This document shows positions 3,925-22,762 of a DNA stretch of 32,000 nt, piece after piece. Within the stretch, counting starts at the first letter, position 1; every line of letters begins with the position of its first letter. Origin of the DNA: Gammaproteobacteria bacterium (lineage in GTDB: Bacteria; Pseudomonadota; Gammaproteobacteria; JBIOEC01); the NCBI GenBank assembly GCA_965279305.1, contig OZ257143.1:1080001-1112000 (forward strand), written 5' to 3'. The notes under the pieces were generated by a model that ran no database searches, was not told the DNA's origin, and saw only the letters and a program-made list of their open reading frames with translations. Position numbers and translations under genes: made by a program.

Positions 3925-5598
3925 ATGGTAGCAAACGTAAGAACGCCCGAACAAATCGCAATCGCGGAAGAAGCCTTATTCATCCATGTATCCGATTTAC
4001 CTGAAAATTTAGATCAGTATTACTCAAGTCATAAAACAGCGAAAGCCACTCAATTGGGTGTACAGGATCAGATAAAATTGGTGGCTGGTCTTCGAAGTAT
4101 TTTGCGTAATAAAAATTATGACAAACCTGGAAAATTGGAAAGCGAATTAGAACGAATAACAGTAGATGCTAACGTCGCCAAAAAAGCGATGGGTCAATTG
4201 GTCAATCTGCCTACTGCGGTTAAACGTGAAGTGTTTGGTTTTGATAAAAATATTACTGATGCTGGTGTAGAGCAAGCATTTCAATATTGGGTTTCTGGAT
4301 CCAGTATCGTTTTAGATTTGAATGGTGATCCTGCTACGGATGAAAAAGCTACCCAAATCGCCAAAGAAATCACCAGAGCTCCAAGTGCTAAAAAGGAACC
4401 GCGTATTTTGGGAGAAGAATATGATCCTAATATGGTTGAAATGATAGAAAGACATGCCGCCCAAGCGGGCAGACCTGTTACTCCCGTGTCACCAACCGAA
4501 GATATCCCTATTTATAAATCTCTTGATTTTAATACCCAAGGTTTTGAAGCCATTGTTCAGGCTTTAGGTAATGGTTTTATTCTACGAAATATAGATGTTG
4601 GCTTTTTTACCCCACCTGAAAATACAAGCTTATTAGATAGGGCAGCAAGAGTTTTAACCCGAACAAGCAAAGATAAAAACGCTGTATCAGCAGATGCGGT
4701 TGTGGCTTTAGCTAAAATATTACCAGCTCTAGATGCTGATACTTTGAGTTTTAGAGCATGGAATGGATTAGAAGAAGGCGCATTAAATGCGGTTATCGCC
4801 GGTATGGCAAATAATGGACATATTCGAATATTAGATATATCCGGTAGTAAAGTAAGTGAAAATACGGGTAAAGCTTTAGGTCGGATGTTAGCTGAAAATA
4901 AAGGTTTGTTAAGTGTGGTGGTAGATAATTGTTTTTTTGATGTACATGCTTTTAAACCTATACATGCTGGTGTAGAAAAAAATCATAACATCATTAAATT
5001 TGATATTAGTCGTGCTTCCAGTTTCGTTCCGGGTTCTAAAGAATTAGGATCGGTACGTGATATAGCGTTTCATGCTACGAATAGTGATGCGGCTGTCGAA
5101 GCCTGGGGCACAAGAATAGAAAATATACTTTATATGCATCAGTCAGAAGCTGATGCGGCCGTTTTAAAATCGGCTGAAGCAGCAGAAGAAACAGGCTCGG
5201 ATGTTGAGCCAGAAGGTCCAGCTGTTTCGAATATATTGTTCCAAGCTGAATCTAACCTTGCACAAGTGAGAAAGAATAATTTAAAAATCGTTCGTGCTCC
5301 TGCATCACCTGCAAGTAGCGTTTCAAGTTTATCGGGTTCTTCCTCTATGTCTGCCAGTACCGCGAGTATGACATCAGTGGGAACACCTTCAAGTCCAATA
5401 TCACCTGCAACGTCTTCATCATTGTTGTCGGTACCTTCATCACCTGTTCGCAGCAGAATGGTGAGAGCACCTTCTAGAGAAACGCCTCCTGTTTCACCTG
5501 TGGCTTCTCCTAGTGTTGCTAGAAAATTGGTAGTGGCTCCTGTGCCTCAGGGTGTGGATGGTCCTACTCCAAAACCGTCGTCTCCTTCTCCTAAATAA
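3925..5598 (+). CDS. hypothetical protein with RNI/RanGAP-type leucine-rich repeats and a Ser/Pro-rich C-terminal tail (effector-like)
   Basis: 557-aa ORF. Residues ~198-364 (nt ~4516-5016) show a 28-29-residue periodicity of the ribonuclease-inhibitor LRR type, e.g. NGLEEGALNAVIAGMANNGHIRILDISGS, KVSENTGKALGRMLAENKGLLSVVVDNC and FFDVHAFKPIHAGVEKNHNIIKFDISRA. The last ~105 residues are low-complexity S/P/A/V. I recognise no enzymatic motif. Confidence 0.6.
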   Translation: MVANVRTPEQIAIAEEALFIHVSDLPENLDQYYSSHKTAKATQLGVQDQIKLVAGLRSILRNKNYDKPGKLESELERITVDANVAKKAMGQLVNLPTAVKREVFGFDKNITDAGVEQAFQYWVSGSSIVLDLNGDPATDEKATQIAKEITRAPSAKKEPRILGEEYDPNMVEMIERHAAQAGRPVTPVSPTEDIPIYKSLDFNTQGFEAIVQALGNGFILRNIDVGFFTPPENTSLLDRAARVLTRTSKDKNAVSADAVVALAKILPALDADTLSFRAWNGLEEGALNAVIAGMANNGHIRILDISGSKVSENTGKALGRMLAENKGLLSVVVDNCFFDVHAFKPIHAGVEKNHNIIKFDISRASSFVPGSKELGSVRDIAFHATNSDAAVEAWGTRIENILYMHQSEADAAVLKSAEAAEETGSDVEPEGPAVSNILFQAESNLAQVRKNNLKIVRAPASPASSVSSLSGSSSMSASTASMTSVGTPSSPISPATSSSLLSVPSSPVRSRMVRAPSRETPPVSPVASPSVARKLVVAPVPQGVDGPTPKPSSPSPK

Positions 5599-5666: not shown

Positions 5667-6698
5667 ATGTCTGAGATCCGTCTTGCTATTGTAGGTGCCA
5701 CCGGAGTGGTTGGTCAGGCTATGCTCGCGTGTTTAGAAGAACGACGCTTTCCTGTGTCTGAATTATATGCTGTAGCGAGTCAGCGCTCTGCTGGCACATC
5801 GGTTACATTTAATGGTAAATCGTATCCTGTAAAAGCGTTAGATACTTTTGATTTTTCCAAAGTAGATATTGCTTTATTTTCGGCAGGTTCTCAGCGTGCA
5901 TTAGATTACGCACCAAAAGCCGCCGCTGCTGGGTGTGTAGTGATCGATAACAGCTCTGCGTTTCGTCGCGATCCCCATGTTCCTTTAATTATTCCTGAAG
6001 TAAACGGTGATGCTTTAAAAGGATTTGATAGAAAATCCGGTAAAAAAATGATTATTGCTAATCCTAATTGTTCTACTATGCAAATGTTAGTGGTGTTAAA
6101 ACCCATTTATGATGCAGCAGGCATTAGTCGTATTAACGTTGCTACGTATCAATCTGTTTCAGGCTCAGGAAAAGCAGCTATTGATGAATTAAAAGATCAA
6201 ATTCATGCTTGGTCAGAAAAAAGACCTTTAAAAAATAATATATATCCGGTGCCCATTGCATTTAATGTGATCCCTCACATTGATACGTTTGAAGAAAATG
6301 GTTACACCAAAGAAGAAATGAAAATGGTATATGAAACTCAGAAAATTTTGGGTGACGATACTATTCAAGTCAATCCTACGGCTGTGCGTGTTCCTGTTTT
6401 TTACGGACACTCTGAAGCCGTGCATATTGAAACGCGTAAAAAAATAAGTGCGCAAGAAGTGAAAGCATTATTATGCAAAGCCTCGGGGGTTCAGGTGATG
6501 GATGGATGCGAACCTGGACAATACCCAACACCGGCTATGCATGGAGAGGGAACTAACCCCGTGTATGTGGGGCGGATCCGTGAAGATGTAAGCCATCCAC
6601 AAGGTATTGATTTATGGATAGTGGCTGATAATATTCGCAAAGGTGCCGCTCTTAATGCCGTGCAGATTGCCGAATATTTACTGCAACATTACTGGTAA
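5667..6698 (+). CDS. asd: aspartate-semialdehyde dehydrogenase family protein (short Asd / USG-1 type)
   Basis: 343 aa with VGATGVVGQ (NAD(P) fold), the IIANPNCSTMQM active-site Cys motif, YQSVSGSGKAAIDEL, VPVFYGHSEAVH and ADNIRKGAALNAVQIAE. Its position upstream of fimV-truA matches the asd/usg-fimV-truA arrangement of other gammaproteobacteria. Confidence 0.8.
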   Translation: MSEIRLAIVGATGVVGQAMLACLEERRFPVSELYAVASQRSAGTSVTFNGKSYPVKALDTFDFSKVDIALFSAGSQRALDYAPKAAAAGCVVIDNSSAFRRDPHVPLIIPEVNGDALKGFDRKSGKKMIIANPNCSTMQMLVVLKPIYDAAGISRINVATYQSVSGSGKAAIDELKDQIHAWSEKRPLKNNIYPVPIAFNVIPHIDTFEENGYTKEEMKMVYETQKILGDDTIQVNPTAVRVPVFYGHSEAVHIETRKKISAQEVKALLCKASGVQVMDGCEPGQYPTPAMHGEGTNPVYVGRIREDVSHPQGIDLWIVADNIRKGAALNAVQIAEYLLQHYW

Positions 6699-6799
6699 AT
6701 TATTACACTTGACGGATGCCATCTGCTATACGTCTGCTATAATAGTTAAATCGGTTTGGATTGGCAGTTAGTTAGGTAGTACTTTTAAAGGAATAAAGC

Positions 6800-8797
6800 A
6801 TGAACACCTACTGGCTTACCCGCAGAAATTTTACCTATAAGCACTTTATTGGTGCGATAGCGTTAAGCCTTAGCTTATCTAGCACCGCTTTATCCTTAGA
6901 TTTAGGTGAAATGGAAGTTATCTCTGAGCCTGGTCAACCCTTCAGAGCAACTGTTCGCGTTATCGATATTCCCAAAAATGCTTCTCACTTATCTGTTGGT
7001 TTAGCTTCTAAGTCCGAGTACTCAGAAGCCATGATTGAAATGGATCCTGAATTAAAAGAATTAGAATTTGTAGGCATCAAAAAACAAAAGGGCGGCTACT
7101 TTATTTTTATCGAATCTGATAAAAATATGGAAGGGGAGTCGTTGCATATGTTGTTGGCGCTTAAAGGTCCTCACTCTCGTGTGCTTCGTGAATATGTAGT
7201 GATTGAGGAAGAGAATATTTATTCATCACATGCACAACCTTCGCTTATTGAATTAACAGAAGTTAAAAGACCTAGAGGCCGTATCGAACTGCCTTTACCC
7301 TATATTGCTGTGGCTTATTCAGAGCCTGAAGTGGAAGTTGTTGACGAAATTTATATTAAAGAAGAAAGAGTGGGTGATGTTCGAAGTATTGAAATAAAAG
7401 AAACGCATACTCATAAGCCAAGACATGAACCTCAAGTGTATTCTCAAGCACAATATCAGGTACGCGAAGGTGACAACTTGTGGACGATTGCAGAAGAAGT
7501 GCAAGAAGGAACTGACGCTACTTTCTATCAAGTATTAGCGGCTTTATATGAAGCGAACCCCAATGCGTTTATCAATAATAATATTAATCAATTACGCAGA
7601 GGCGCTACGTTAACCATTCCAAGTACTACCGTTATTTCTTCAACCAGTTCAGAATCGGTTCGTGAAGTGAAAGCACAATTAGGTGGATACGCGACTGAGC
7701 CTGTTCAATCTGCTGCTGTTGACGATGAAAGTATTTTCGAAGCTTTAGAAAAAGGAATTACTTCTACTTCTACAGCTGCATCTAAATCTGCACAATTGCA
7801 AATTTTAACTCCTACAGAAACAGATGAAGCCGCTGGAACGAATGGTGTTGAGAGTTCCAATGAAGCAATGGCATTAATGAATGAAGAGTTAGTGCAAGCA
7901 GAGCGTGAAAATGAAGAACTCATGATGCGCGTTCAATCATTGCAAACACAAATTAATACCTTGCAAGAAATGTTACAAGTGCGTGAAGAACATGCCTCCG
8001 GCATTGCACCTGAAATAAATTCCTCTACGCATCCTGATAATAGGGGTAACGTAGATGAAATATTAATTATAGAAGAAGCGGGTGGTTCCTCTAATGTAAT
8101 TCAATCACATGATCCAGCGGCTGTTGAAATGAAACCCACCGAATGGGTTGACTCTGGCGGCTTATGGAAAAACTTAACCAGTAGCCAATGGTTTAATTAT
8201 TTAGCATTAGGATTAGGCGTTATTATTTTATTATTAGTGTCTATGGCGCTTTTTGGTCGTCGTAAAACGTTGGTAAGAAGAAAAAGATCATCGCCTATGA
8301 TGTCTGAACCTGTGGTAGAAAAAACCGTGAAGAGAAGCGATATTCGTCCTCAACAAAATACTCAGCCCCAGAACAATCAGGCACAGAGCACTCAAGCGAA
8401 ACCATCTGTTCAATCTAAGCCAGCACCTTCTAATAATGCTGCACAACAAACAACTAAAAGTACATCAGCAGCACCTGCGATTAAAGCCGCCGTAGCCGCG
8501 CGTACCGAAAACCGCGTAGAAGCTAAACCAGAAGCCAAAGTGCAGCCATCTGCACAGCAGGCTCCAAAAACGGCTGAAAAAGTGGTAGAATCTCACGCTA
8601 AACCCGCACATTCTCATGGTTATGTAGAAGAAGATAAAGTGGCGGCTAAATTAGATTTAGCCAAAGCCTATCATGAGTTGGGTGATGATGATAACGCCGT
8701 TTCTTTATTACAAGAAGTATTATGGGAAGGCGATACCAAACAGCGTAAATCAGCCCAAGAATGGCTGGCCAGAATAGACGACGAACGAAAGATATAA
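6800..8797 (+). CDS. fimV: FimV-like peptidoglycan-binding (LysM) membrane protein
   Basis: 665 aa. Features in order: signal/anchor N-terminus, the FimV N-terminal motif LDLGEMEVISEPGQPF, a LysM domain (YQVREGDNLWTIAEEV...LRRGATLTIP, nt ~7454-7625), a coiled-coil segment, and a TM helix (WFNYLALGLGVIILLLVSMALFG). A Q/A/P-rich low-complexity region follows, then the FimV C-terminal TPR-like motif LDLAKAYHELGDDDNAVSLLQEVL. Confidence 0.85.
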   Translation: MNTYWLTRRNFTYKHFIGAIALSLSLSSTALSLDLGEMEVISEPGQPFRATVRVIDIPKNASHLSVGLASKSEYSEAMIEMDPELKELEFVGIKKQKGGYFIFIESDKNMEGESLHMLLALKGPHSRVLREYVVIEEENIYSSHAQPSLIELTEVKRPRGRIELPLPYIAVAYSEPEVEVVDEIYIKEERVGDVRSIEIKETHTHKPRHEPQVYSQAQYQVREGDNLWTIAEEVQEGTDATFYQVLAALYEANPNAFINNNINQLRRGATLTIPSTTVISSTSSESVREVKAQLGGYATEPVQSAAVDDESIFEALEKGITSTSTAASKSAQLQILTPTETDEAAGTNGVESSNEAMALMNEELVQAERENEELMMRVQSLQTQINTLQEMLQVREEHASGIAPEINSSTHPDNRGNVDEILIIEEAGGSSNVIQSHDPAAVEMKPTEWVDSGGLWKNLTSSQWFNYLALGLGVIILLLVSMALFGRRKTLVRRKRSSPMMSEPVVEKTVKRSDIRPQQNTQPQNNQAQSTQAKPSVQSKPAPSNNAAQQTTKSTSAAPAIKAAVAARTENRVEAKPEAKVQPSAQQAPKTAEKVVESHAKPAHSHGYVEEDKVAAKLDLAKAYHELGDDDNAVSLLQEVLWEGDTKQRKSAQEWLARIDDERKI

Positions 8798-12314: not shown

Positions 12315-15300
12315 ATGCCAACAATAAGATCAGAAGGTGGAGTTGCTGTAGCTCCTGCACCAGCCCATTTAACTCTCGCTTACGAAACTACTTTACCTAC
12401 AGAACAGCCCACTACTTTAGCTGCACCCGATCGTATTCGGGAGATGTTCGATAAATTAACTCCAAGTCAAAAAGAAGCGCTAAAGTCCATAGTGATAGGC
12501 GCTATGTCGTTTGGATCTTTGGGTTTAGAGGCTCATAAAGCTATTGCTAAAGATATCAATACGCTTGCCATGCTTCTTCATGGTGTCACTACTATGGCCG
12601 AATTACTGGCCAAAGGCCGTGCTTATCCCATGAGTAATAGTGGCGAAGGTGGAGAGCTGCCATCACGTCTTGGCACAGATGAACAAAGTAGAATGGTTCA
12701 GATAGCATCGGGACATTTCGGTGTAACCATTGAATATGTAGCCAATGCTAGTGGGATCCAAATTAAAATTAATCAAGCCGCTAAGCCTGGACTTGGTGGT
12801 GAACTATTGGCTGTTAAAGTTACTCCCGAAATTGCAGCGGCTCGTTTAGTTCCGCAAGGGATTGATCTTAAATCTCCGCCTCCTCATCACGATCTTTATT
12901 CAGTAGAAGAATTAAAACAATTAATACTGGAATTGCGCATTGCTAATCCTAATGCATTTATTTCAGTGAAACTGGCAGCACAAGAAGGGATCGGTATTAT
13001 TGCTGCTGCTTTAGTAAAATGCGGTGCTGATGATATTTGTATTGCGGGTAAAGGGGGCGGTACAGGTGCTGCTCCTACGGATGCTCTTTATAATTTTGCC
13101 AGACCTTGGGAAACTGCACTGGCTGAAGTGCATCAAACATTAATTGCGAATGGTATACGCGATCGAGTCACTTTAACAGTAAGTGGTGGGATACAAACCG
13201 GGTTTGATTTATTTCTTGCGAAATTACTAGGTGCTGATTTAGGCGAAATAGGAACGCCTGCATTAGTCGCTTTGGGATGTGTGATGGCACGTGTGTGCCA
13301 TGATGGAACGTGCCCTAAAGGTATTGCTACTAATAATCCTGACTACACTTCCAAATTTGAAGGAAAATACGGTGATGTAGCCCAAATGTTGGTTAATCTT
13401 GCTACTTCGTATGATGACCATTTGCAAGAATATGGTTTGACCACTGAAAGTGCTAGAGGAAGAACAGATTTACTGAGAGTAAAAGAAGGCGCTCCTTTTA
13501 CTAATCTTGAAATGCTTTTATTGCAGCCTGAAAACCCTTATAAATCTTTTACTGCTCCTGTCAGAATTGATCCTGTTAGTACTACAGAGCAATATGCGAT
13601 TGAACAAATTCTACAAGGTAAAACGGATATTGTAATAGATGGAAACAATACGAATACCTTAGGTTTTGGTGCACGTATTGGGTATCACTCTGTAAAAACA
13701 GCTGAATTCCAAGATGCTTTTGTTAATCCCGTCACTATTACCTTTAATGGCTTAGCCGTAGGTTCGGGTTTTGGTACTTTTGCACCTGCTGGTCTTACAT
13801 TAGTGGCTCGCAATGCTAATGATGGTGCCGCTAAATCTTTAAGCGGCGCTGATGTTGTCTGTACTCAAAGTATTGGTAATCAAGCCGGTCTTGGTGCTAC
13901 TAGCGGTAGAATATTTGCTCCGGTGTGGGGTGACAGGCCACTGGTTAGAAACTCGGGTGCAATAGCAGTGGCAGAGCGAATTGGTGATTGCGGCGCTAAT
14001 TATATGACGGGCGGTAGTCTTACTATTTTGGGTGATACTCTTGATTACCCCATCACATTTACTCATGGTAATACCAGCTCGCCAATGAAGTTTCGATCTG
14101 ATCGTGTGGGGCCTAATTTCGGATCAGGCATGACGGGCGGGCATGTGTTTATGCCCAGACATTTATATGAAGAGTTATTAAGAAAGAATCATTTAGAAGC
14201 TGCTTTTGCTAATGTTCAACTACAACATTTAAATGAGACTGATGCTGCTGAACTGGCTGCTCTTGTAAAAGACTATTTAACTCATAATTCTAGCGATTGG
14301 GTAAAAGAATTAGTTGAGCAAGAAAATTTTTCACAGTTTTTTATAAAATTAGATCCTCGAGTGCTTAAACCCGTTTTACAACCTGCTTCTGTAGAACCAG
14401 TTAAATCGCCAGATTTACTTCCTGTTCCAGAAATTGTAGTAAGACCACCTTCAGCGGTTCCTGGGCAAGATACTGAAACATCAACAACTGCATCGCTAGA
14501 TAATTTGAGTGTTCCTCCACGAGATGAGCAAGATGCTTGTGGTGTGGGTACTTTTATTAATTTAAAAGGTGAGTCTAGCCGAACTGTGACTGATAATGCA
14601 TTAACTATGCTAGAAAGAATGATGCATAGAGGTGCTAGTGGCGTTGATAAAGACACAGGCGATGGATGCGGTATTGTTTGGTATGGTTTAGAAGAGTTTT
14701 TTCAAGCCGTTTTTCCTGATTTAAATCCTAGAGGAATAAGATTAGAAAGAGGAGCTTATAGTGTTATTCCTATTAGTATCGGAGACGACACATCTTATAG
14801 TGTCCGTCGTGTTTTGAATGAATTATTAATCAAAGAAGATTTACACATTGCAAGTGAAAGAGATGTTCACACGGCCAAGCCTACGGAGAATGATCCTATT
14901 TTCTTAGGTACGATTGGAGCTAGCCAAGAAAAAGGTGTTAAACAATATTTGGTATTGAAGCCAGTTTGGATGAACCAAGAAGAATTTGAAAAACGATTAA
15001 TACGTGTGAGATTACTTTTTGAATTAGATCCAAAAACTCAAGCCAAGGAAAATCGCCCTCATATTTATAGTGCTTCGTCTTATAATGTGATTTATAAATC
15101 ACTCGTTTTAGAAAGTAGATTTAGAAAATATTTTGATGATTTTTTAAATCCGTTATTCAAGGCAAGTGCTGCCGTTTCTCATGCGCGCTTTTCTACCAAT
15201 ACTAAGCCAGTGGGTAAAAATATTCAGCCTACTCCTAACGTAGCGAATAATGGTGAAAATAATAATATTGTGCAGCTGATGCGGCAGATTATGTATAACC

Positions 15301-18300
15301 CTTTATTTGCCAAATTGTTAGGTATTGAACGTATTGATATATCCGGATTAAGCGATTCACACATTATGTCGATAGGTATGGATTTTTTCCGCCTATTAGG
15401 ATTTAGCGCAGAAGAAATTGCCGCGTTAACTATTCAAGCTTACAATCCCAACGATCCTGCTCTTAGCCAATTTTATAATTTATTTGGTAATCCTTTTGAA
15501 GGCCCGAATGCCAGCATTATGATTATTGGTGATAAAATTATTGTGGTAAGAGATCTGAATGGTTTTAGACCGCAAAGAGGAATACGCAACAAAGAATTCT
15601 TCTATTCTGGATCTGAAATTGGTCCGGTGGATGAACCGTTCCAGATGGAAGGAGAACTATTTGATATTCCTCCTGGAAAACCTGTCGTTATTGATTTAAA
15701 AACAGGTACAGTGACTATTGATCCTTTTCAATCGTTTGCCCCTGCACTGGCTGAAAAATTAAAAGCATTAGAAGCCCATTTATCTGCAGATGAGATGCCA
15801 GCCGCTCTTGTTTTTTCACAAGAAGATCTTTCCGTTCGCAAATTACGTGCGGGTTGGGATGCACAAATTGATAGAAAATTTATGCAACCTCTTTTTAATG
15901 GAGGTAAAGGTTCTATTTCTTCCATGGGAGATCAAGGTCCTGATGAAGCATCTGTATCGGGTGGTTTGCTCGTGCTAGGCAATGCTATTCTGGGAAATGT
16001 GGCACAAATTACGAATCCTCCTTTAGATAGAAAGCGTGAAGGCGCTTATATGCAGACGATTACTTTTGTTGGTAAAAAACCTGCATTGGAAGGATTAAGA
16101 AGTAACGATATAGAAGGTGTCACTTTACCTTCACCCATTATTTCTAATGAACAGATGGCTTTATTACAAAATGATAGTCGTTTACGTTCAGAAGTTATTG
16201 ATATAACAATCCCTCTCAACAAGGTGAAAGGTGGTTTAGAAGCGGCTATTAAAAATGTGGTGCTGCATGTTTTGCAGCTGGTTCGTTCGGGTGCAACTTT
16301 TATTACATTATCCGATTTAAATGTAGATAATGAACATGCTGCTATTCCTCCTTTATTAGTAGCGAGTCGTGTCGATCAAGCTTTATTGGAAGCGGGTTTA
16401 CGTCGTAATGTTTCTATTGGGTTACAAGCCGCCAGTGTATTGACGGTGCGTGATGTGGCTCAAGCCATTTCTATTGGTGGTGTTGATTTGGTTAATCCGT
16501 ATTTACCGTTAACGCCTACTTCTCAAGAAGAATTTGCTTCTCCTGAATTTAAACGACGTTCTAAAGAATATATAAAACAATTAACACTAGGGCTGCAAGA
16601 CAATGCTGCTCGTATGGGTATATCAAGTATTTCTGCTTATCGTGGAACCAAAGTATTTAGCGGATATGGATTAAGTGATGATATAGCGAAGATGTTAGGC
16701 ATTCCTTCTATTTTAGGTGGCATTGGTCTATCAGATGTAGAAAATATGGTGGTTAATACACACTGTTATCCTAATCCTGAAGGAAATGGAAAGTATGAAG
16801 GTGGAAGTGAACAGCGCCTCGATATTTGGGGTGATGGAGTAGCTGCAGATGCCGCTAGAATTATCAGTGGAAAATCCAAAACTACCTGGTCTGACATGGA
16901 AGCAAAAATGCAAGCCCGCCAAAATGCGCCACGCAATTTTTTATATTTAGTGCAACCTAAGGTGTGGACAGCTAAAAATCCGATGACCGTTTGTATTTTG
17001 GGTGGTGGTGCCGCTGGTTTTTTTCAAGCAAGAACTTTATTAGATTCTGGATTGCCAGTAAACATTGTTATTATCGAAAAAAATGCTAGAAATCAATTTG
17101 GATTGGTAAAAGACGGTGTTGCACCGGATCATGACGCAACCAAAAGCCGTAGCGAATTGTTACATAGCGTTTTAGATGATCCTCGAGTTAAATATTGGGG
17201 GGGGATAGAAGTGGGTGAGGAAGGAGACAATTCAGTTTCTTTTGCACATTTACAAAAAACGTATCCGTGTATTGTGGATTGCAGAGGAGCTTCGGTAGAT
17301 AATAAATTAGGCGTTCAAGGCGAAAATACGCCTTACGTGATTCCTGCTAGTGTGGTGTATAAATCTTATAATGGTGCAGTGGATCTGGATGCAGAAGGGC
17401 ATAAAGATTGGTGGTTAACGCCACAGAGCCGAAATCTTACGGTTGGCATTATTGGAAATGGAAATGTGGCAGGCGATATTGCGCGAATTTTCTTAGCGGA
17501 TCCTCAAAAATTAGCTCAAACCTCTATTCATCCCATTTTCTTAAATTCATTAAAAAAAGATGCTCCGCAAGTGGTTCGCGTATTTGCACGTGGTAATGCA
17601 CATGAAACCAAAATAGATTTACATCAATTGAAGGCATTAGAAACATTAGGAATACAAATTTCAGTATCTATGCCTGCTTTGAAAGAAGGCCAGCAGCTTA
17701 CTGATGAGCAACGTGCGCTGTATAGTTTTTTTGCTCAATATAAAGATAAAAAATATCCACCATCTAGTAAAAAAACATTGCATTTCCATTTTGGAATGAC
17801 CCCGCAAAAATTTGAAGCGGGACAAAAAGAAGTAACAGGATTTTTTACTGACTCTAGTGGAAACATTATTGCTTTTGATGCACGTAATTTTATTACGGCT
17901 ATTGGAACCAAACGATTATCGGATATACAAAGAACACCTTATGCTAGCGGTTGGGTAGCAGGACAAGGTGGTACTTTAGATAAAGCAGAAGACAGTGCAC
18001 AAGCTACTACCGATATAATTGTTAAAGATTTTAATGCGGGCAAATTTCATAATACTTTGCGACCACCAGTAAAACAACATTGGCACAAACTGGCTCAAGT
18101 GACCAATGGTATGTTCTTGAATATTCTTGCTTATGTGGCCAGTGGTGGTCGAATAGATACTCAAGACGGTCTTGAAAAAGCCAAAGCCTATTCTAGAGGA
18201 AACGGAAGTAGTGCCAAGCTTAAAGTAGCACCCCAACCCGTTCCAGCTCCTGCAGCAGATGTAGATCGCAACACTATTCGTGTTGAAGATAAAGATGGAA

Positions 18301-18662
18301 ATGTGACAGTGTTGCCTATACCTGAGGAAAATGTTTCTTTATTAGAATATTTAGATAAAACTCAGCCTAGCGGAAAAGTACCTGAAGCCGAATGTGGTGG
18401 TAAAGGAAATTGCGCTACTTGTGGGGTAGATGTGCTTGAAATAGAAGACTTAGGTGGATTGTTGAGTCATCGAAAAGAGCAGGGAAGAGATGTTGGGCCT
18501 GAGGGTGAAAGAAGAAGATTGTCTTGTTTGCATCAGACAGATGAGTTTACAGGTCAAGGTGCAAAAGTAAGAATAGTGAAACCGCAGAATGCGCCAGCAC
18601 CTGCTGCCTCGAACGCGCCAGACCCCGGTCCAAAACCTCTATCTGTTGCCTCTATGCAGTGA
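12315..18662 (+). CDS. giant multidomain flavo-iron-sulfur protein: circularly permuted glutamate synthase large-subunit homolog fused to an adrenodoxin-reductase-like domain and a [2Fe-2S] ferredoxin domain
   Basis: Uninterrupted 2115-aa ORF with a good SD. Domains N to C: the GltS FMN domain (SNSGEGGE at nt 12633, SPPPHHDLYSVEEL, GGGTGAAP, Cys322-x5-Cys328-x4-Cys333 at 13278-13313). Next the GXGXG domain (VRNSGAIAVAE, GDCGANYMTGG, GSGMTGGHVF) and a Pro-rich linker. Then the class-II amidotransferase domain starting CGVGTF (Cys742, nt 14538) with HRGA, HARFSTNT and NNGE. Then the GltS central domain (VAQITNPPLDRKREG). Then an AdR/FprA-type reductase (ILGGGAAG, FGLVKDGVAPDH, GNGNVAGDIARI, SGWV). 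Last, an Adx-type ferredoxin (C2027-x5-C-x2-C-x34-C2071). Confidence 0.85.
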   Translation: MPTIRSEGGVAVAPAPAHLTLAYETTLPTEQPTTLAAPDRIREMFDKLTPSQKEALKSIVIGAMSFGSLGLEAHKAIAKDINTLAMLLHGVTTMAELLAKGRAYPMSNSGEGGELPSRLGTDEQSRMVQIASGHFGVTIEYVANASGIQIKINQAAKPGLGGELLAVKVTPEIAAARLVPQGIDLKSPPPHHDLYSVEELKQLILELRIANPNAFISVKLAAQEGIGIIAAALVKCGADDICIAGKGGGTGAAPTDALYNFARPWETALAEVHQTLIANGIRDRVTLTVSGGIQTGFDLFLAKLLGADLGEIGTPALVALGCVMARVCHDGTCPKGIATNNPDYTSKFEGKYGDVAQMLVNLATSYDDHLQEYGLTTESARGRTDLLRVKEGAPFTNLEMLLLQPENPYKSFTAPVRIDPVSTTEQYAIEQILQGKTDIVIDGNNTNTLGFGARIGYHSVKTAEFQDAFVNPVTITFNGLAVGSGFGTFAPAGLTLVARNANDGAAKSLSGADVVCTQSIGNQAGLGATSGRIFAPVWGDRPLVRNSGAIAVAERIGDCGANYMTGGSLTILGDTLDYPITFTHGNTSSPMKFRSDRVGPNFGSGMTGGHVFMPRHLYEELLRKNHLEAAFANVQLQHLNETDAAELAALVKDYLTHNSSDWVKELVEQENFSQFFIKLDPRVLKPVLQPASVEPVKSPDLLPVPEIVVRPPSAVPGQDTETSTTASLDNLSVPPRDEQDACGVGTFINLKGESSRTVTDNALTMLERMMHRGASGVDKDTGDGCGIVWYGLEEFFQAVFPDLNPRGIRLERGAYSVIPISIGDDTSYSVRRVLNELLIKEDLHIASERDVHTAKPTENDPIFLGTIGASQEKGVKQYLVLKPVWMNQEEFEKRLIRVRLLFELDPKTQAKENRPHIYSASSYNVIYKSLVLESRFRKYFDDFLNPLFKASAAVSHARFSTNTKPVGKNIQPTPNVANNGENNNIVQLMRQIMYNPLFAKLLGIERIDISGLSDSHIMSIGMDFFRLLGFSAEEIAALTIQAYNPNDPALSQFYNLFGNPFEGPNASIMIIGDKIIVVRDLNGFRPQRGIRNKEFFYSGSEIGPVDEPFQMEGELFDIPPGKPVVIDLKTGTVTIDPFQSFAPALAEKLKALEAHLSADEMPAALVFSQEDLSVRKLRAGWDAQIDRKFMQPLFNGGKGSISSMGDQGPDEASVSGGLLVLGNAILGNVAQITNPPLDRKREGAYMQTITFVGKKPALEGLRSNDIEGVTLPSPIISNEQMALLQNDSRLRSEVIDITIPLNKVKGGLEAAIKNVVLHVLQLVRSGATFITLSDLNVDNEHAAIPPLLVASRVDQALLEAGLRRNVSIGLQAASVLTVRDVAQAISIGGVDLVNPYLPLTPTSQEEFASPEFKRRSKEYIKQLTLGLQDNAARMGISSISAYRGTKVFSGYGLSDDIAKMLGIPSILGGIGLSDVENMVVNTHCYPNPEGNGKYEGGSEQRLDIWGDGVAADAARIISGKSKTTWSDMEAKMQARQNAPRNFLYLVQPKVWTAKNPMTVCILGGGAAGFFQARTLLDSGLPVNIVIIEKNARNQFGLVKDGVAPDHDATKSRSELLHSVLDDPRVKYWGGIEVGEEGDNSVSFAHLQKTYPCIVDCRGASVDNKLGVQGENTPYVIPASVVYKSYNGAVDLDAEGHKDWWLTPQSRNLTVGIIGNGNVAGDIARIFLADPQKLAQTSIHPIFLNSLKKDAPQVVRVFARGNAHETKIDLHQLKALETLGIQISVSMPALKEGQQLTDEQRALYSFFAQYKDKKYPPSSKKTLHFHFGMTPQKFEAGQKEVTGFFTDSSGNIIAFDARNFITAIGTKRLSDIQRTPYASGWVAGQGGTLDKAEDSAQATTDIIVKDFNAGKFHNTLRPPVKQHWHKLAQVTNGMFLNILAYVASGGRIDTQDGLEKAKAYSRGNGSSAKLKVAPQPVPAPAADVDRNTIRVEDKDGNVTVLPIPEENVSLLEYLDKTQPSGKVPEAECGGKGNCATCGVDVLEIEDLGGLLSHRKEQGRDVGPEGERRRLSCLHQTDEFTGQGAKVRIVKPQNAPAPAASNAPDPGPKPLSVASMQ

Positions 18663-18664
18663 TA

Positions 18665-18790
18665 GCGTCATTGCGAGCATCCGTTTCGGATGCGTGGCAA
18701 TCTATATCAAATAAGTCGTGGCTATTTTGACATGGATTGCCACGTGCTCGAAGCGAGCACTCGCAATGACGGCTCATTTGCAATGACGGA
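18665..18790. repeat. nested palindromic (MITE/REP-like) element between the convergent 2115-aa ORF and tpx; possible bidirectional terminator
   Basis: Outer stem CGTCATTGCGAG (18666-18677) pairs with CTCGCAATGACG (18760-18771). Inner stem GTGGCAATC (18694-18702) pairs with GATTGCCAC (18735-18743). Two side hairpins are GCATCCG-TTT-CGGATGC (18777-18793) and GTGCTCG-AAG-CGAGCAC (18744-18760). A 12-nt partial direct copy TTGCAATGACGG (18778-18789) follows TCGCAATGACGG (18761-18772). Confidence 0.7.
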
Positions 18791-18797
18791 TAGGAAA

Positions 18798-19298
18798 TTA
18801 TCTCGCAGCTGCTAAAGCAGCATCGTAATTAGGTTCGTGTGCAATTTCTGGCACTTGTTCGGTGTAAATCACATTACCTTGACCGTTAATAATCACCACT
18901 GCGCGTGAAAATAAACCGGCTAATTTACCATCGGTAATTTCTACACCATAGTTTTCACCAAATTCATGGTTGCGAAACGCTGAAACGGGAATAACATTAT
19001 CTAAACCTTCTGCACCACAGAAACGATTTTGCGCAAACGGTAAATCCATAGACACACATAATACTTTTGCGTTATGCAATTCATTGGCTTTGCTATTAAA
19101 TGTGCGCACAGAAGTCGCGCAAGTAGGGGTGTCTAAGCTAGGGAAAATATTTAAAATAACGGTTTTGCCCGCAAAGTCTTTTAGACTTACTTCGCTTAAA
19201 TCAGTTTTGGTTAATTTAAAATCGGGAGCTGCCGTTCCTTTTTCAGGTAAGTCAGCAAATGTGTGTAGTGGATTTCCTTGCAGTGTTACTGTAGCCAT
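18798..19298 (-). CDS. tpx: thiol peroxidase (atypical 2-Cys peroxiredoxin)
   Basis: 166 aa with APDFKLT, the peroxidatic Cys motif [12 protein letters not shown], the resolving Cys in [13 protein letters not shown], and RAVVIIN. Confidence 0.92.
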
Positions 19299-19312
19299 CG
19301 AGTATCTCCTTG

Positions 19313-20734
<1,422 letters not shown>

Positions 20735-20751
20735 TTATATCATGTTTTCTG

Positions 20752-20781
20752 TTGACAGTGGTAGGAGGGGATCTCTATAAT
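20752..20781 (+). promoter_or_regulatory. consensus sigma70 promoter of the tRNA-Ala/tRNA-Glu unit
   Basis: TTGACA (20752-20757), an 18-nt spacer, then TATAAT (20776-20781), 13 nt before the mature tRNA-Ala 5' end. Confidence 0.55.
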
Positions 20782-20794
20782 AGCCCGTTCTTCT

Positions 20795-20870
20795 GGGGCT
20801 ATAGCTCAGCTGGTAGAGCACTTGCATGGCATGCAAGGGGTCAGCGGTTCGATCCCGCTTAGCTCCACCA
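20795..20870 (+). tRNA. tRNA-Ala (anticodon GGC)
   Basis: 76 nt: GGGGCTA/TAGCTCC acceptor stem, anticodon stem CTTGC/GCAAG, loop ATGGCAT, T-arm AGCGG-TTCGATC-CCGCT, encoded CCA. Nearly identical to my recollection of E. coli tRNA-Ala(GGC). Confidence 0.97.
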
Positions 20871-20900
20871 TGTGGCTTTGAGATAGCTCAGAAAATATGT

Positions 20901-20976
20901 GTCCCCATCGTCTAGAGGCCTAGGACATTGCCCTTTCACGGCAGTAACAGGGGTTCGAATCCCCTTGGGGACGCCA
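20901..20976 (+). tRNA. tRNA-Glu (anticodon UUC)
   Basis: 76 nt: GTCCCCA/TGGGGAC acceptor stem, anticodon loop CTTTCAC, T-arm AGGGG-TTCGAAT-CCCCT, encoded CCA. Confidence 0.97.
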
Positions 20977-21022
20977 ATACTTAAAAAAAACTCCCCCATT
21001 TATGGGGGTTTTTTTTAAGTAT
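20977..21022 (+). terminator. rho-independent (bidirectional-looking) terminator after tRNA-Glu
   Basis: ATACTTAAAAAAAACTCCCCCA-TTTA-TGGGGGTTTTTTTTAAGTAT: a G/C core stem CCCCCA/TGGGGG flanked by an A8 tract on the 5' side and a T8 tract on the 3' side. Confidence 0.8.
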
Positions 21023-21040
21023 CGGTTTATCAATAGCGAT

Positions 21041-21133
21041 TCGAACTTTAGTTCGACCAAATTGCCAGGAGCAATTTGGAACGCACGAAGTGCGGCCCCG
21101 AATGAAATGAGGGGCGAGGCGCAGGGATGCGCC
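21041..21133. repeat. run of five short hairpins between the tRNA-Glu terminator and the duplicated tRNA 3' segment
   Basis: The hairpins are TCGAACT-TT-AGTTCGA (21041-21056), CCAAATTGC-CAGGA-GCAATTTGG (21057-21079), CGCAC-GAA-GTGCG (21082-21094), GCCCC-N11-GGGGC (21095-21115) and GGCGCA-GGGA-TGCGCC (21118-21133). Confidence 0.55.
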
Positions 21134-21137
21134 GAGT

Positions 21138-21152
21138 AATCCCCTTGGGGAC
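21138..21152 (+). repeat. 15-bp perfect direct repeat of the tRNA-Glu T-arm/acceptor 3' segment (att-like scar)
   Basis: AATCCCCTTGGGGAC at 21138-21152 is identical to 20958-20972 inside tRNA-Glu. The second copy has no CCA and no upstream tRNA body. Confidence 0.8.
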
Positions 21153-21186
21153 ACTACTTTATTGGGCTTTTTTAACAGGTGTACCT

Positions 21187-21681
21187 ATGCAAGAAATTAT
21201 CGCTATCGAGACCTTAAGAAATGCTTTTCGCCCAATAGAGCAATTTAAAGCAGAGCATACTACGTTCAATATGCTGACTTTTCATAGTGCTGCTCGAAAT
21301 GCTTTGCTAGCTATGGAGATCGCCACTCGAATAATGACAGATAGTAATGTGCTAGGTAGGATGGAACCACACTTTCAGCAGGCATTTTATCTTTCCAATA
21401 GTGGTATGCTCTTCACTATTATTGCTTTCCGTTTTCATTCTCTGATAGGGCAACTGGGTGATGATAAGAAAGCAGAGCTTTCAGAGGATTCTATTAAAGC
21501 AGAAGCGGCTACTCGCTTCTCTCATATATCTACCCTGCAGCAACTACTGAACAGTCCAGACTCACCTTATTTTAGGGCGATAGAGCATTTTACTACCCTT
21601 AAAAATGCACAACTTGCTGTTACACCTCCTAGCGTGCCGCCTGCACCAGCACGTGGACCTTCAGTTGCTCCTGCTGCATAA
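21187..21681 (+). CDS. orphan hypothetical protein with a Pro/Ala-rich C-terminal tail
   Basis: The ORF track gives 21127-21681, but its first 20 codons overlap the hairpin run and the tRNA-derived repeat. The internal ATG at 21187 has an AGGTG SD (21177-21181) 5 nt upstream, giving 164 aa (MQEIIAIETLRN...). I recognise no family. The tail is TPPSVPPAPARGPSVAPAA. A terminator follows. Confidence 0.55.
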   Translation: MQEIIAIETLRNAFRPIEQFKAEHTTFNMLTFHSAARNALLAMEIATRIMTDSNVLGRMEPHFQQAFYLSNSGMLFTIIAFRFHSLIGQLGDDKKAELSEDSIKAEAATRFSHISTLQQLLNSPDSPYFRAIEHFTTLKNAQLAVTPPSVPPAPARGPSVAPAA

Positions 21682-21682
21682 G

Positions 21683-21712
21683 ACACCCCTCTAGCGCAGA
21701 GGGGGTGTTTTG
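21683..21712 (+). terminator. rho-independent terminator after the orphan ORF
   Basis: ACACCCCTCT-AGCGC-AGAGGGGGTGT followed by TTTT, starting 2 nt after the TAA stop. Confidence 0.7.
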
Positions 21713-21757
21713 GTATAAAATAGTGCCCTAGCGTTGGGCTTATTCTTCGTATTGAGC

Positions 21758-21907
21758 TTGGCATCATAAAAACACACTTATATCAATCAAACCGCCTTCT
21801 GGGTGCCTGGCTCTTGTTCAATCAAGGCTGGTCGAAAAGCGGGGATATAGGTAGGCTTAACCCGGTAGGCATGGTTTATCCATCCTACGAACACGTGGAG
21901 TTTGAAA
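21758..21907 (+). promoter_or_regulatory. candidate rpsB promoter plus GC-enriched 5' leader (possible S2 autoregulatory leader)
   Basis: TTGGCA (21758-21763), a 17-nt spacer, then TATCAA (21781-21786). This is followed by a ~115-nt leader that is visibly more GC-rich than other intergenic DNA here. It carries a GGTAGGC direct repeat and a GTAGG...CCTAC stem just before the SD GGAG (21897-21900). S2 autoregulation through the rpsB leader is known in gammaproteobacteria; homology here is not verified. Confidence 0.3.
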
Positions 21908-22762
21908 ATGACAGTATCTATTCGTGACATGTTATCTGCGGGCGTCCATTTCGGACACCAAACACGGTTTTGGAACCCAAAGATGAAAGAATACATTTTT
22001 GGCGTTCGTTCAAAAATTCATATTATTGACCTAGATAAAACAGCGCCTTTATTTAACGATGCGCTAAACGTAATGAGCAAAATTGCCAGCAAAAAAGGCA
22101 AGATTTTATTTGTAGGTACCAAAAGAGCAGCAAGCGAAGCAGTTCGTGAACAAGCACAACGTTGCGGTATGCCTTATGTGGATCATCGCTGGTTGGGTGG
22201 TACATTAACCAATTACAAAACCGTTCGTCGTTCTATTCAGCGCTTGAAAGATATTCAAGAAATGCGCAGCAGCTCAGTGGCTCAGCATATTAGCAAAAAA
22301 GAACGCTTAACCATGGATCGCGAACTTGAAAAATTAGAACGCAGCTTGGGCGGTATTAAAGATATGGGCGGTTTGCCTGACGCGATGTTTGTCATCGACG
22401 TTGGTTTTGAAAAAATCGCGATCAAAGAAGCACAGCGTTTAAAAATTCCTGTGATCGGTATTGTTGATACCAACAATGATCCATCAGGAATTGATTATAT
22501 TATTCCGGGTAACGACGATGCTATTCGTGCGGTTACTTTTTACTTAAGCGCAGCAGCCGATACTATTATTGCTGCTCGTCAAGCCGCTGAACTAGAAACA
22601 GCTCCTGTTGCTGAAGAAGTGGCAATAGTGGAAGAAGAACCTGCCGCTAAAGCAAAAGTAAAAACACGTAAGAAAAAAGTAGCATCAGATGAAGCCGCTA
22701 GTGATAGCGAAGAAACTGGTAGCAACGAGAAAGGTTCTGAGTCTTCTGAAGACAAAGAATAA
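21908..22762 (+). CDS. rpsB: 30S ribosomal protein S2, with an acidic C-terminal extension
   Basis: [26 protein letters not shown] is the canonical S2 N-terminus. The ORF-track start at 21902 is a TTG two codons upstream. The ATG at 21908 lies 7 nt after GGAG. Confidence 0.95.

Follow-up and report, generated by a model that had tools for sequence, protein, structure and literature searches.

Glutamate synthases (GltS, or GOGAT) have been described with several forms of electron input: the NADPH-dependent alpha-beta enzyme (NADPH-GltS), the ferredoxin-dependent enzyme (Fd-GltS), and the fused eukaryotic NADH-dependent enzyme (NADH-GltS), in addition to archaeal open reading frames (ORFs) that encode the domains separately (PMC8097209). 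None of the forms covered in that account has a cassette of adrenodoxin reductase (AdR) and adrenodoxin (Adx), or a permuted alpha body. Here, we describe a gene with both. It lies in a 32,000-nt stretch of a gammaproteobacterial genome (assembly GCA_965279305.1, contig OZ257143.1, positions 1,080,001 to 1,112,000), which we refer to as "the window". The gene is a single ORF at 12315..18662, on the + strand like all of its parts described below, and was delimited by ORF and Pfam domain calls. It encodes 2115 amino acids (aa) arranged as flavin mononucleotide (FMN) domain, GXGXG domain, glutamine amidotransferase (GATase) domain, central domain, AdR-like domain, and Adx-like domain. A preliminary description of one segment, 16980-18600, proposed that an AdR-like reductase and an adrenodoxin-type ferredoxin stand there in place of GltD. 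The whole segment falls within this ORF, and every motif string, cysteine, and coordinate given in that description was recovered exactly.

We propose that the protein is a self-sufficient, pyridine-nucleotide-dependent glutamate synthase in which the fused AdR/FprA-type and adrenodoxin-type cassette functionally replaces GltD, and we consider this quite probable. A broader proposal is more tentative, and we hold it with slightly less than even confidence: that the protein belongs to a fourth class of glutamate synthase, besides NADPH-GltBD, Fd-GltS, and NADH-GOGAT. This class would have the AdR/FprA–adrenodoxin cassette at the boundary of the central and FMN domains. Most of its members are permuted and hence would be polyproteins that cut themselves at an internal N-terminal nucleophile (Ntn) site, Ala741|Cys742, and the class would have been transferred between protists and bacteria, the latter including some whose neighboring genes look Legionella-like. 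Of the two departures from known enzymes, we consider the permutation a more surprising feature than the cassette. The full-text literature that was searched holds no description of such a glutamate synthase; since most subscription journals fall outside its coverage, this is absence of evidence only.

The reductase domain

The reductase domain spans residues ~1556-1960 (16980..18194) and was assigned from phmmer matches, from an AlphaFold2 (AF2) model searched with Foldseek, and from its motifs. Starting at the N terminus, VCILGGGAAGFFQARTLL (residues 1559-1576) contains GGGAAG, a GxGxxG motif, at residues 1563-1568 (nt 17001-17018). It is followed by FGLVKDGVAPDHDATK (residues 1595-1610), with GVAPDH at nt 17115-17132; within it, FGLVKDGVAPDH (residues 1595-1606) corresponds to the (F)GL(V)RxGVAPDH motif, and the active-site His is present. 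Further along are WGGIEVG (residues 1628-1634) and VGIIGNGNVAGDIARIF (residues 1710-1726, nt 17442-17492), which contains GNGNVAGDIAR, the signature of the second dinucleotide fold (GxGNVAxDxAR). YASGWVAGQGG (residues 1876-1886) includes SGWVAGQGG, within nt 17940-17972, i.e., the C-terminal motif SGWxxxGxxG for flavin adenine dinucleotide (FAD). An alignment of 32 sequences, 31 of them AdR/FprA homologues, shows no variation in the FAD and NAD(P)H motifs, nor at G51, L52, G56, A58, P59, D60, and H61.

Searched with phmmer against the complete set of PDB sequences, residues 1546-2115 matched Mycobacterium tuberculosis FprA (1lqt; E = 1.6e-24) and bovine adrenodoxin reductase (1cjc; E = 1.3e-21), with colinear motifs and nothing else rising above noise. 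In large protein collections, every match outside the family described below is FprA-, AdR-, or Arh1-like, at 23-38% identity. The predicted fold points the same way. The AF2 model, built from the 32 sequences, has a predicted local distance difference test score (pLDDT) >90 across most of the domain, and its top seven Foldseek matches are all AdR/FprA structures (including 1cjc, 2c7g, 1lqt, and 1e6e), with E-values of ~1e-27.

GltD itself consists of an AdR-like domain with an N-terminal [4Fe-4S] extension (PMC8097209). The replacement therefore exchanges one member of a superfamily for another, with a change of iron-sulfur (Fe-S) carrier besides, and does not recruit an unrelated reductase. 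The same kinship raises the possibility that the reductase is a highly diverged GltD fused to GltB, as in eukaryotic NADH-GOGAT, and that its likeness to AdR reflects nothing beyond the shared superfamily. Two results lean in that direction: the first ~170 residues weakly match the NCBIfam GltD model TIGR01317 (E = 2e-6), and GltD-like chains do turn up in the fold search. The score against TIGR01317 is 26.9 bits, however, for a cut-off of 447.7, and BLASTP of the reductase against E. coli GltD gave no significant alignment (best E = 1.2). Up to E = 1, the PDB search that returned FprA and AdR yielded nothing from GltD, DPD, or Nfn. In the fold search, NfnI (5e-16) and Azospirillum brasilense GltD (6s6s_E; 9e-14) come well after the AdR/FprA structures, a gap in E-value of at least 11 orders of magnitude, and of 13 for GltD itself. 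From residue 1455 up to the ferredoxin ligands, the chain has no cysteines apart from 1484, 1560, 1652, and 1656, so the cysteine clusters for the two [4Fe-4S] centers of GltD are absent, as the preliminary description had stated. Lastly, a [2Fe-2S] ferredoxin domain follows the reductase; to our knowledge, GltD never has one. We therefore regard a diverged GltD as very improbable, and by both sequence and modeled fold, the domain is of the AdR/FprA type and not GltD.

FprA-like reductases can also carry fused ferredoxin domains of the 4Fe-4S (Fer4) kind, as seen in P0006, P0007, P0011, P0021, P0032, and P0056. Fusion of reductase and ferredoxin has thus arisen independently with a different cluster type.

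The ferredoxin domain and its tether

A low-complexity, Pro/Ala-rich linker (18195..18299; …KVAPQPVPAPAADV…), which includes PQPVPAPA at residues 1973-1980, separates the reductase from the ferredoxin. It is predicted to be disordered, and its AF2 pLDDT is <50 at fragment residues 419-440. The ferredoxin domain covers residues ~1996-2095 (18300..18599) and was recognized from its cysteine pattern, a profile search, an AF2 model, and Foldseek. A Pro/Ala-rich C-terminal tail and the stop codon complete the gene (18600..18662, from the sequence).

The predicted cluster ligands are C2027-x5-C2033-x2-C2036-x34-C2071 (nt 18393-18422 and 18525-18527), the last within RRLSCL (residues 2067-2072). This agrees with the adrenodoxin-type spacing that was tested, C-x5-C-x2-C-x(~29-37)-C; the spacing had been read correctly in the preliminary description. 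In an alignment of 21 family members, these four cysteines are the sole invariant columns. On its own, the window sequence matches Pfam Fer2 weakly (E = 0.004), falling short of the cut-off for that model. A profile of the 21 sequences is far more informative, matching terpredoxin (1b9r; 1.6e-9) and adrenodoxin (5uj5; 7.3e-9) in the PDB, with further matches to Arx (3lxf), FdVI (1e9m), putidaredoxin, human FDX1 and FDX2, and the mitochondrial ferredoxins of yeast and Schizosaccharomyces pombe. In an AF2 model of the entire C-terminal module, the ferredoxin was covered by two sequences and had a pLDDT of ~30. It was replaced by a model from the 21-sequence alignment, with a pLDDT of 84.8 and a predicted template modeling score of 0.79. 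Foldseek places adrenodoxin-type structures first for this model (3hui, 1oqq, 3lxf, and 4ltu), with plant-type ferredoxins appearing from rank 23. Between the third and fourth cysteines, adrenodoxin-type ferredoxins have an acidic "interaction" hairpin (E..(L/M)L), a region that contacts redox partners; the KE..LL segment of the family lines up with the ENDLL of this hairpin in terpredoxin. Together, the profile and fold matches show that the domain is adrenodoxin-type and not plant-type, in line with what had been read from the spacing. Both domain assignments in the preliminary description are correct.

A circularly permuted GltB body

All four GltB domains were found, apparently intact (Pfam E-values from 1e-22 to 1e-100). 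The FMN (synthase) domain comes first (residues 52-374, 12468..13436; PF01645, 5.9e-100), followed by the GXGXG beta-helix domain (residues 452-614, 13668..14156; PF01493, 5.5e-22), which is C-terminal in canonical GltB. Next, after a Pro/Ser/Thr-rich linker evident in the sequence (residues ~680-741, 14352..14537), is the class-II (Ntn) glutamine amidotransferase domain, GATase_2 (residues 742-1134, 14538..15716; PF00310, 1.1e-50), whose match begins at position 1 of the Pfam profile. The glutamate synthase central domain (residues 1180-1454, 15852..16676; PF04898, 9e-50) then leads to the reductase through a connector of ~100 aa (16677..16979) that has one cysteine, Cys1484, and no Fe-S motif.

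This order is a circular permutation, a feature that the preliminary description of segment 16980-18600 does not mention. Window residues 735-1483 align with residues 15-772 of Bacillus subtilis GltA (7mfm), and window residues 52-701 align with residues 857-1489; alignment to E. coli GltB gives the same permuted mapping. On this sequence evidence, the body reads as FMN–GXGXG–GATase–central in place of the canonical GATase–central–FMN–GXGXG, with the linker at ~680-741 joining the canonical C terminus to the canonical N terminus. The break lies at the boundary between the central and synthase (FMN) domains, which lies at residue ~780 in A. brasilense numbering (PMC8097209). The protein scores 642.7 bits against NCBIfam NF008730, which is less than the cut-off of 1047. 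Catalytic and cluster motifs are present. A [3Fe-4S] motif, C322-x5-C328-x4-C333-P (nt 13278-13322), lies inside the FMN domain; it is kept in the 16 FMN-domain sequences checked, except for the unpermuted relative P0116, where the search pattern was unmatched. The amidotransferase signatures, Cys, HRG, GDG, and NGE, were all found in the window protein.

The internal nucleophile and predicted cleavage

Cys1 of class-II (Ntn) amidotransferases has a free amino group, which these enzymes use. In canonical mature GltB, the nucleophile cysteine is residue 1, and both canonical GltB and PurF reach this state by removal of a propeptide. In the window protein, the nucleophile is Cys742 (nt 14538-14540), internal to the chain and directly preceded by ...RDEQDA. 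Because the free amino group of Cys1 is used in this class, we predict cleavage at Ala741|Cys742, to which we give about even odds; glutaminase activity should need this bond to be cut. A cut before Cys742 would give a chain of ~740 aa with the FMN and GXGXG domains, and a chain of ~1370 aa with the GATase, central, AdR, and Adx domains. Both proposed products match pieces that are encoded as separate genes in the split loci described below. As a corollary of the architecture, permutation implies either an obligatory internal cleavage or a dead glutaminase.

The second of these options amounts to an alternative in which the protein stays uncut and its glutaminase is inactive, such that it works as an ammonia-dependent glutamate synthase only, or has another activity. 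The internal position of the Ntn cysteine speaks for it. The conservation of the site does not: wherever the site could be located, neither the nucleophile nor the glutaminase signature residues vary, and (K/E)D(A/S) before the cysteine is kept although the linker sequence ahead of it varies within the family. Of 22 scanned sequences from the family, 15 have D(A/S)|CG(V/T)G and the other seven left the pattern unmatched; this context resembles that of canonical GltB (e.g., ...HDA|CGIG in B. subtilis). In addition, the split-gene relatives still have 70-95 residues ahead of the nucleophile cysteine, suggesting that propeptide removal is family-wide. We consider an uncut protein with a dead glutaminase unlikely.

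A family in bacteria and protists

An exhaustive HMMER search of the C-terminal 570 aa against 1.84 billion representatives gave 23 representatives at E ≤ 1e-30, most of them ~2100 aa long and matched at their C termini. The AdR–Adx cassette occurs in about 20 clusters (50% identity) from bacteria and protists. It was in this search that the family emerged; a word-indexed search with the same 570 aa returned P0001 as the only close relative. P0001 (694 aa) is a fragment, since a run of N at ~1560-1640 of its locus, L001, splits a GATase–central–AdR–Fdx gene into two calls. Among 185,579 species genomes, no relative was picked up by the patterns GGAAGFFQ and [DE]DPRVKY[WY], used with the C-terminal alignment; in these species representatives, the family is thus missing, masked, or diverged at the two motifs.

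Three architectures are represented. All full-length relatives that were mapped have the domain order of the window protein, apart from P0116, a protein of 2187 aa encoded in a bacterial setting with carAB and recG. Its single chain is not permuted and reads GATase–central–AdR–Fdx–FMN–GXGXG. In two split loci, a first gene encoding GATase–central–AdR–Fdx is directly followed by a second gene encoding FMN–GXGXG with the [3Fe-4S] motif. One locus, L090, belongs to a Marinamargulisbacteria single-cell genome (RAP32559.1); the other, L089, is on a 135-kb metagenome contig. In every relative found, the cassette is fused to or adjoins GltB domains. The simplest history would be an insertion of the cassette at a domain boundary, followed by fission and then by re-fusion in the opposite order.

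The unusual domain order, together with the lack of an exact entry for the protein in the public protein index, could indicate an assembly chimera or a decaying pseudogene. Neither is credible in our view, the chance being extremely small: the reading frame is unbroken over 6.3 kb, the guanine-cytosine (GC) content of the gene matches its flanks, and the same order is seen in >15 independent assemblies. Moreover, a full-length homologue, P0096, is 83-99% identical by domain and 88% identical over the C-terminal module, and it also keeps the tpx and purB neighbors. We therefore reject both readings.

The preliminary description called this form of electron input "eukaryote-flavored", which holds in part. 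Relatives do exist in eukaryotes: one family member is a predicted protein of Paulinella micropora, and two other members are in eukaryotic genomic contexts, L082 (with genes for COPI, DER1, RabGAP, dynein light chain, syntaxin, and the nucleoporin Nsp1) and L087 (Myb and protein kinase genes). Against the label, FprA-type reductases and adrenodoxin-type ferredoxins are common in bacteria, and the unpermuted form and one of the two split forms are in bacterial contexts and branch basally. In a neighbor-joining tree, P0116 and P0248 are basal with 100% bootstrap. The other deep nodes have bootstrap values of 16-58%, and the tree leaves the direction of transfer and the number of permutation events undecided. 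Bacterial and eukaryotic members are intermixed, which suggests transfer between domains of life, in either direction.

L082, a 165.8-kb JGI contig, is very gene-dense; a prokaryotic gene caller returned all of its genes listed above as intact ORFs, and it carries a full-length permuted homologue. Bacterial homologue contexts include L084 and two Legionella-like contigs, which also encode proteins that resemble those of eukaryotes or Legionella effectors. Genes on the latter include those at 6873-7967 and 19939-21645 (L086) and at 5995-7920 and 18712-22387 (L088). One Legionella-like contig has a mitochondrial-carrier (Mito_carr) gene directly upstream of the GOGAT gene, as well as an ankyrin-repeat protein; the other encodes a protein with a SidD-like domain and an OTU-domain protein of >2000 aa.

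Electron input

In the proposed mechanism, the AdR-like domain would use NAD(P)H to reduce its FAD. The ferredoxin domain, on its disordered Pro/Ala tether, would then take single electrons to the [3Fe-4S] cluster, a step modeled on the free ferredoxin of Fd-GOGAT. FMN would in turn reduce 2-iminoglutarate, itself formed from 2-oxoglutarate and the ammonia freed from glutamine in the amidotransferase domain. The full path would be NAD(P)H → FAD → [2Fe-2S] → [3Fe-4S] → FMN → 2-iminoglutarate. The electron-transfer logic and reaction scheme established for GltS fit this proposal (PMC8097209).

AdR/Adx and FprA/ferredoxin pairs supply cytochrome P450s and Fe-S biogenesis. The cassette could likewise serve an acceptor other than glutamate synthase, such as a P450 or the Fe-S assembly machinery, or act in redox sensing or regulation, with the GOGAT body fed by a separate GltD or a free ferredoxin. 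What known pairs do is one argument for this view, and the room that a 32-kb view leaves for gltD elsewhere is another. The association of the cassette with GltB domains argues otherwise: it is fused or adjacent to them in all ~20 clusters, in all three architectures, and in both bacteria and eukaryotes, and linkage conserved to this extent suggests a functional link between cassette and GOGAT. The motif for the [3Fe-4S] entry cluster is also kept, and no P450 or iron-sulfur cluster (ISC) genes were found near the ORF in the window. Another acceptor is accordingly quite unlikely, and a role of the AdR–Adx cassette in electron input to glutamate synthase is, in our judgment, likely. The replacement of GltD that was suggested in the preliminary description thus gains indirect support, from the constant company of GltB domains and from the lack of gltD among the genes of the window.

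Several points count against our proposal. First, the AdR Arg-Arg element for the NADP 2′-phosphate (GRRGP) reads A-R-G-N-A in the window protein (…FARGN…), i.e., it retains the first Arg but has Gly in place of the second; a single Arg is also what most family members have here. Because one Arg of the pair is kept, we write the preferred nucleotide, NADPH or NADH, as NAD(P)H. Second, the ferredoxins of the window protein and P0096 lack ~5 residues of the KE..LL..N segment that the rest of the family conserves (window 18513-18527; alignment columns ~95-105) and are diverged there. Third, the check for gltD covers the 32-kb window, and a gltD elsewhere in the genome is possible. Fourth, the domain identities, motifs, conservation, and architectures are direct readings of the data, and it is from these that we infer the cofactor loading (FAD, FMN, and clusters), the electron route, the nucleotide preference, and the cleavage; the cut at Cys742 in particular is a prediction.

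Genomic setting

The window is an ordinary stretch of gammaproteobacterial chromosome. The nearest named relatives of its EF-Ts are 57-59% identical and come from Thiotrichales bacterium 19S3-7 (59%), a Francisellaceae metagenome-assembled genome, and Competibacteraceae, and a genome scan with PpsA gave matches of ~65-70% scattered across many gammaproteobacterial orders. These results do not establish a placement in Legionellales; the Legionella-like character is confined to some of the contigs that bear homologues. The ORF is preceded by an AGGAAG ribosome-binding site 5′ of its ATG. It is flanked on one side by purK/purE, asd, fimV, truA, and ppsA, and on the other by a tpx-like gene, purB, and tRNA genes for Ala and Glu, and then by rpsB-tsf-pyrH-frr-uppS-cdsA-rseP-bamA-skp. 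Promoter and terminator scans around the gene gave counts no higher than the shuffled expectation. An Rfam scan of the window found two tRNAs only, tRNA-Ala(GGC) at 20795-20870 and tRNA-Glu(TTC) at 20901-20976, a tandem pair that separates purB from the rpsB-tsf cluster. Pfam yields nothing at E ≤ 0.001 for two ORFs amid the housekeeping genes, at 3925-5598 (+, 557 aa) and 21127-21681 (+, 184 aa).

Implications

If the proposed route is true, a one-electron [2Fe-2S] shuttle replaces two low-potential [4Fe-4S] clusters, and the family is a natural experiment on electron entry to the [3Fe-4S]/FMN pair. It also tests whether the role of the beta subunit in allosteric coupling can be provided by an unrelated arrangement. 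The internalized N-terminal nucleophile predicts obligatory self-cleavage which, if true, would make for a clean system in which to study Ntn autoprocessing. The spread of the family is patchy, taking in Legionella-like and other bacteria, and Paulinella and other protists. Together with the coexistence of fused, split, and permuted forms, this patchiness documents gene fission, re-fusion, and inter-domain transfer. The family also sets a trap for annotation: members of ~2100 aa are easily mislabeled as ordinary NADH-GOGAT or "GltB".

Comparison with known glutamate synthases and adrenodoxin systems

Bacterial NADPH-GltBD (A. brasilense 6S6S, B. subtilis 7MFM, and E. coli) shares with the window protein the four alpha-subunit domains, the [3Fe-4S] motif, and the amidotransferase signatures. 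B. subtilis GltA is the best PDB match of the window body (3.2e-171), and the general route, pyridine nucleotide → FAD → Fe-S → [3Fe-4S] → FMN, would be the same. The window protein differs in that it has no GltD: its FAD domain is of the AdR/FprA type, a single adrenodoxin-type [2Fe-2S] domain takes the place of the two [4Fe-4S] clusters, everything is on one polypeptide, and the alpha order is permuted.

Fd-GltS of cyanobacteria and plastids (1OFD/1LLW) resembles the proposed enzyme in that the [3Fe-4S] cluster is presumed to receive its electrons directly from a [2Fe-2S] ferredoxin, and a flavoprotein of the ferredoxin:NADP reductase (FNR) type links that ferredoxin to the pyridine nucleotide pool. 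In the window protein, by contrast, the ferredoxin is adrenodoxin-type, the reductase is AdR-type and not plant FNR, and both are covalently attached; its body is also closer to NADPH-GltB than to Fd-GltS (575 vs 457 bits). Eukaryotic NADH-GOGAT, an alpha–beta fusion of ~2100 aa, is alike in its length, its single chain, and its C-terminal reductase. That reductase part is GltD-like with [4Fe-4S] ligands, however, and the domains are in canonical order (PMC8097209); neither is the case for the window protein. The archaeal-type enzyme, with its domains in separate ORFs, recalls the split forms of the family, which encode FMN/GXGXG as a protein of its own. For these archaeal forms, the domain ORFs alone are mentioned and an AdR–Adx cassette is unreported (PMC8097209), whereas the family has that cassette, a central domain, and similarity to bacterial GltB.

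The AdR/adrenodoxin and FprA/ferredoxin systems (1CJC, 1E6E, and 1LQT), electron chains for class I P450s and Fe-S biogenesis, are the counterparts of the cassette. The window protein departs from them in that its reductase and ferredoxin are fused, its proposed acceptor is a glutamate synthase and not a P450 or the ISC machinery, one of the two Arg residues for the NADP phosphate is kept, and the interaction loop of the ferredoxin is shortened. It resembles them in the motifs and predicted fold of both domains, and its flexible tether is consistent with the known shuttling of adrenodoxin.

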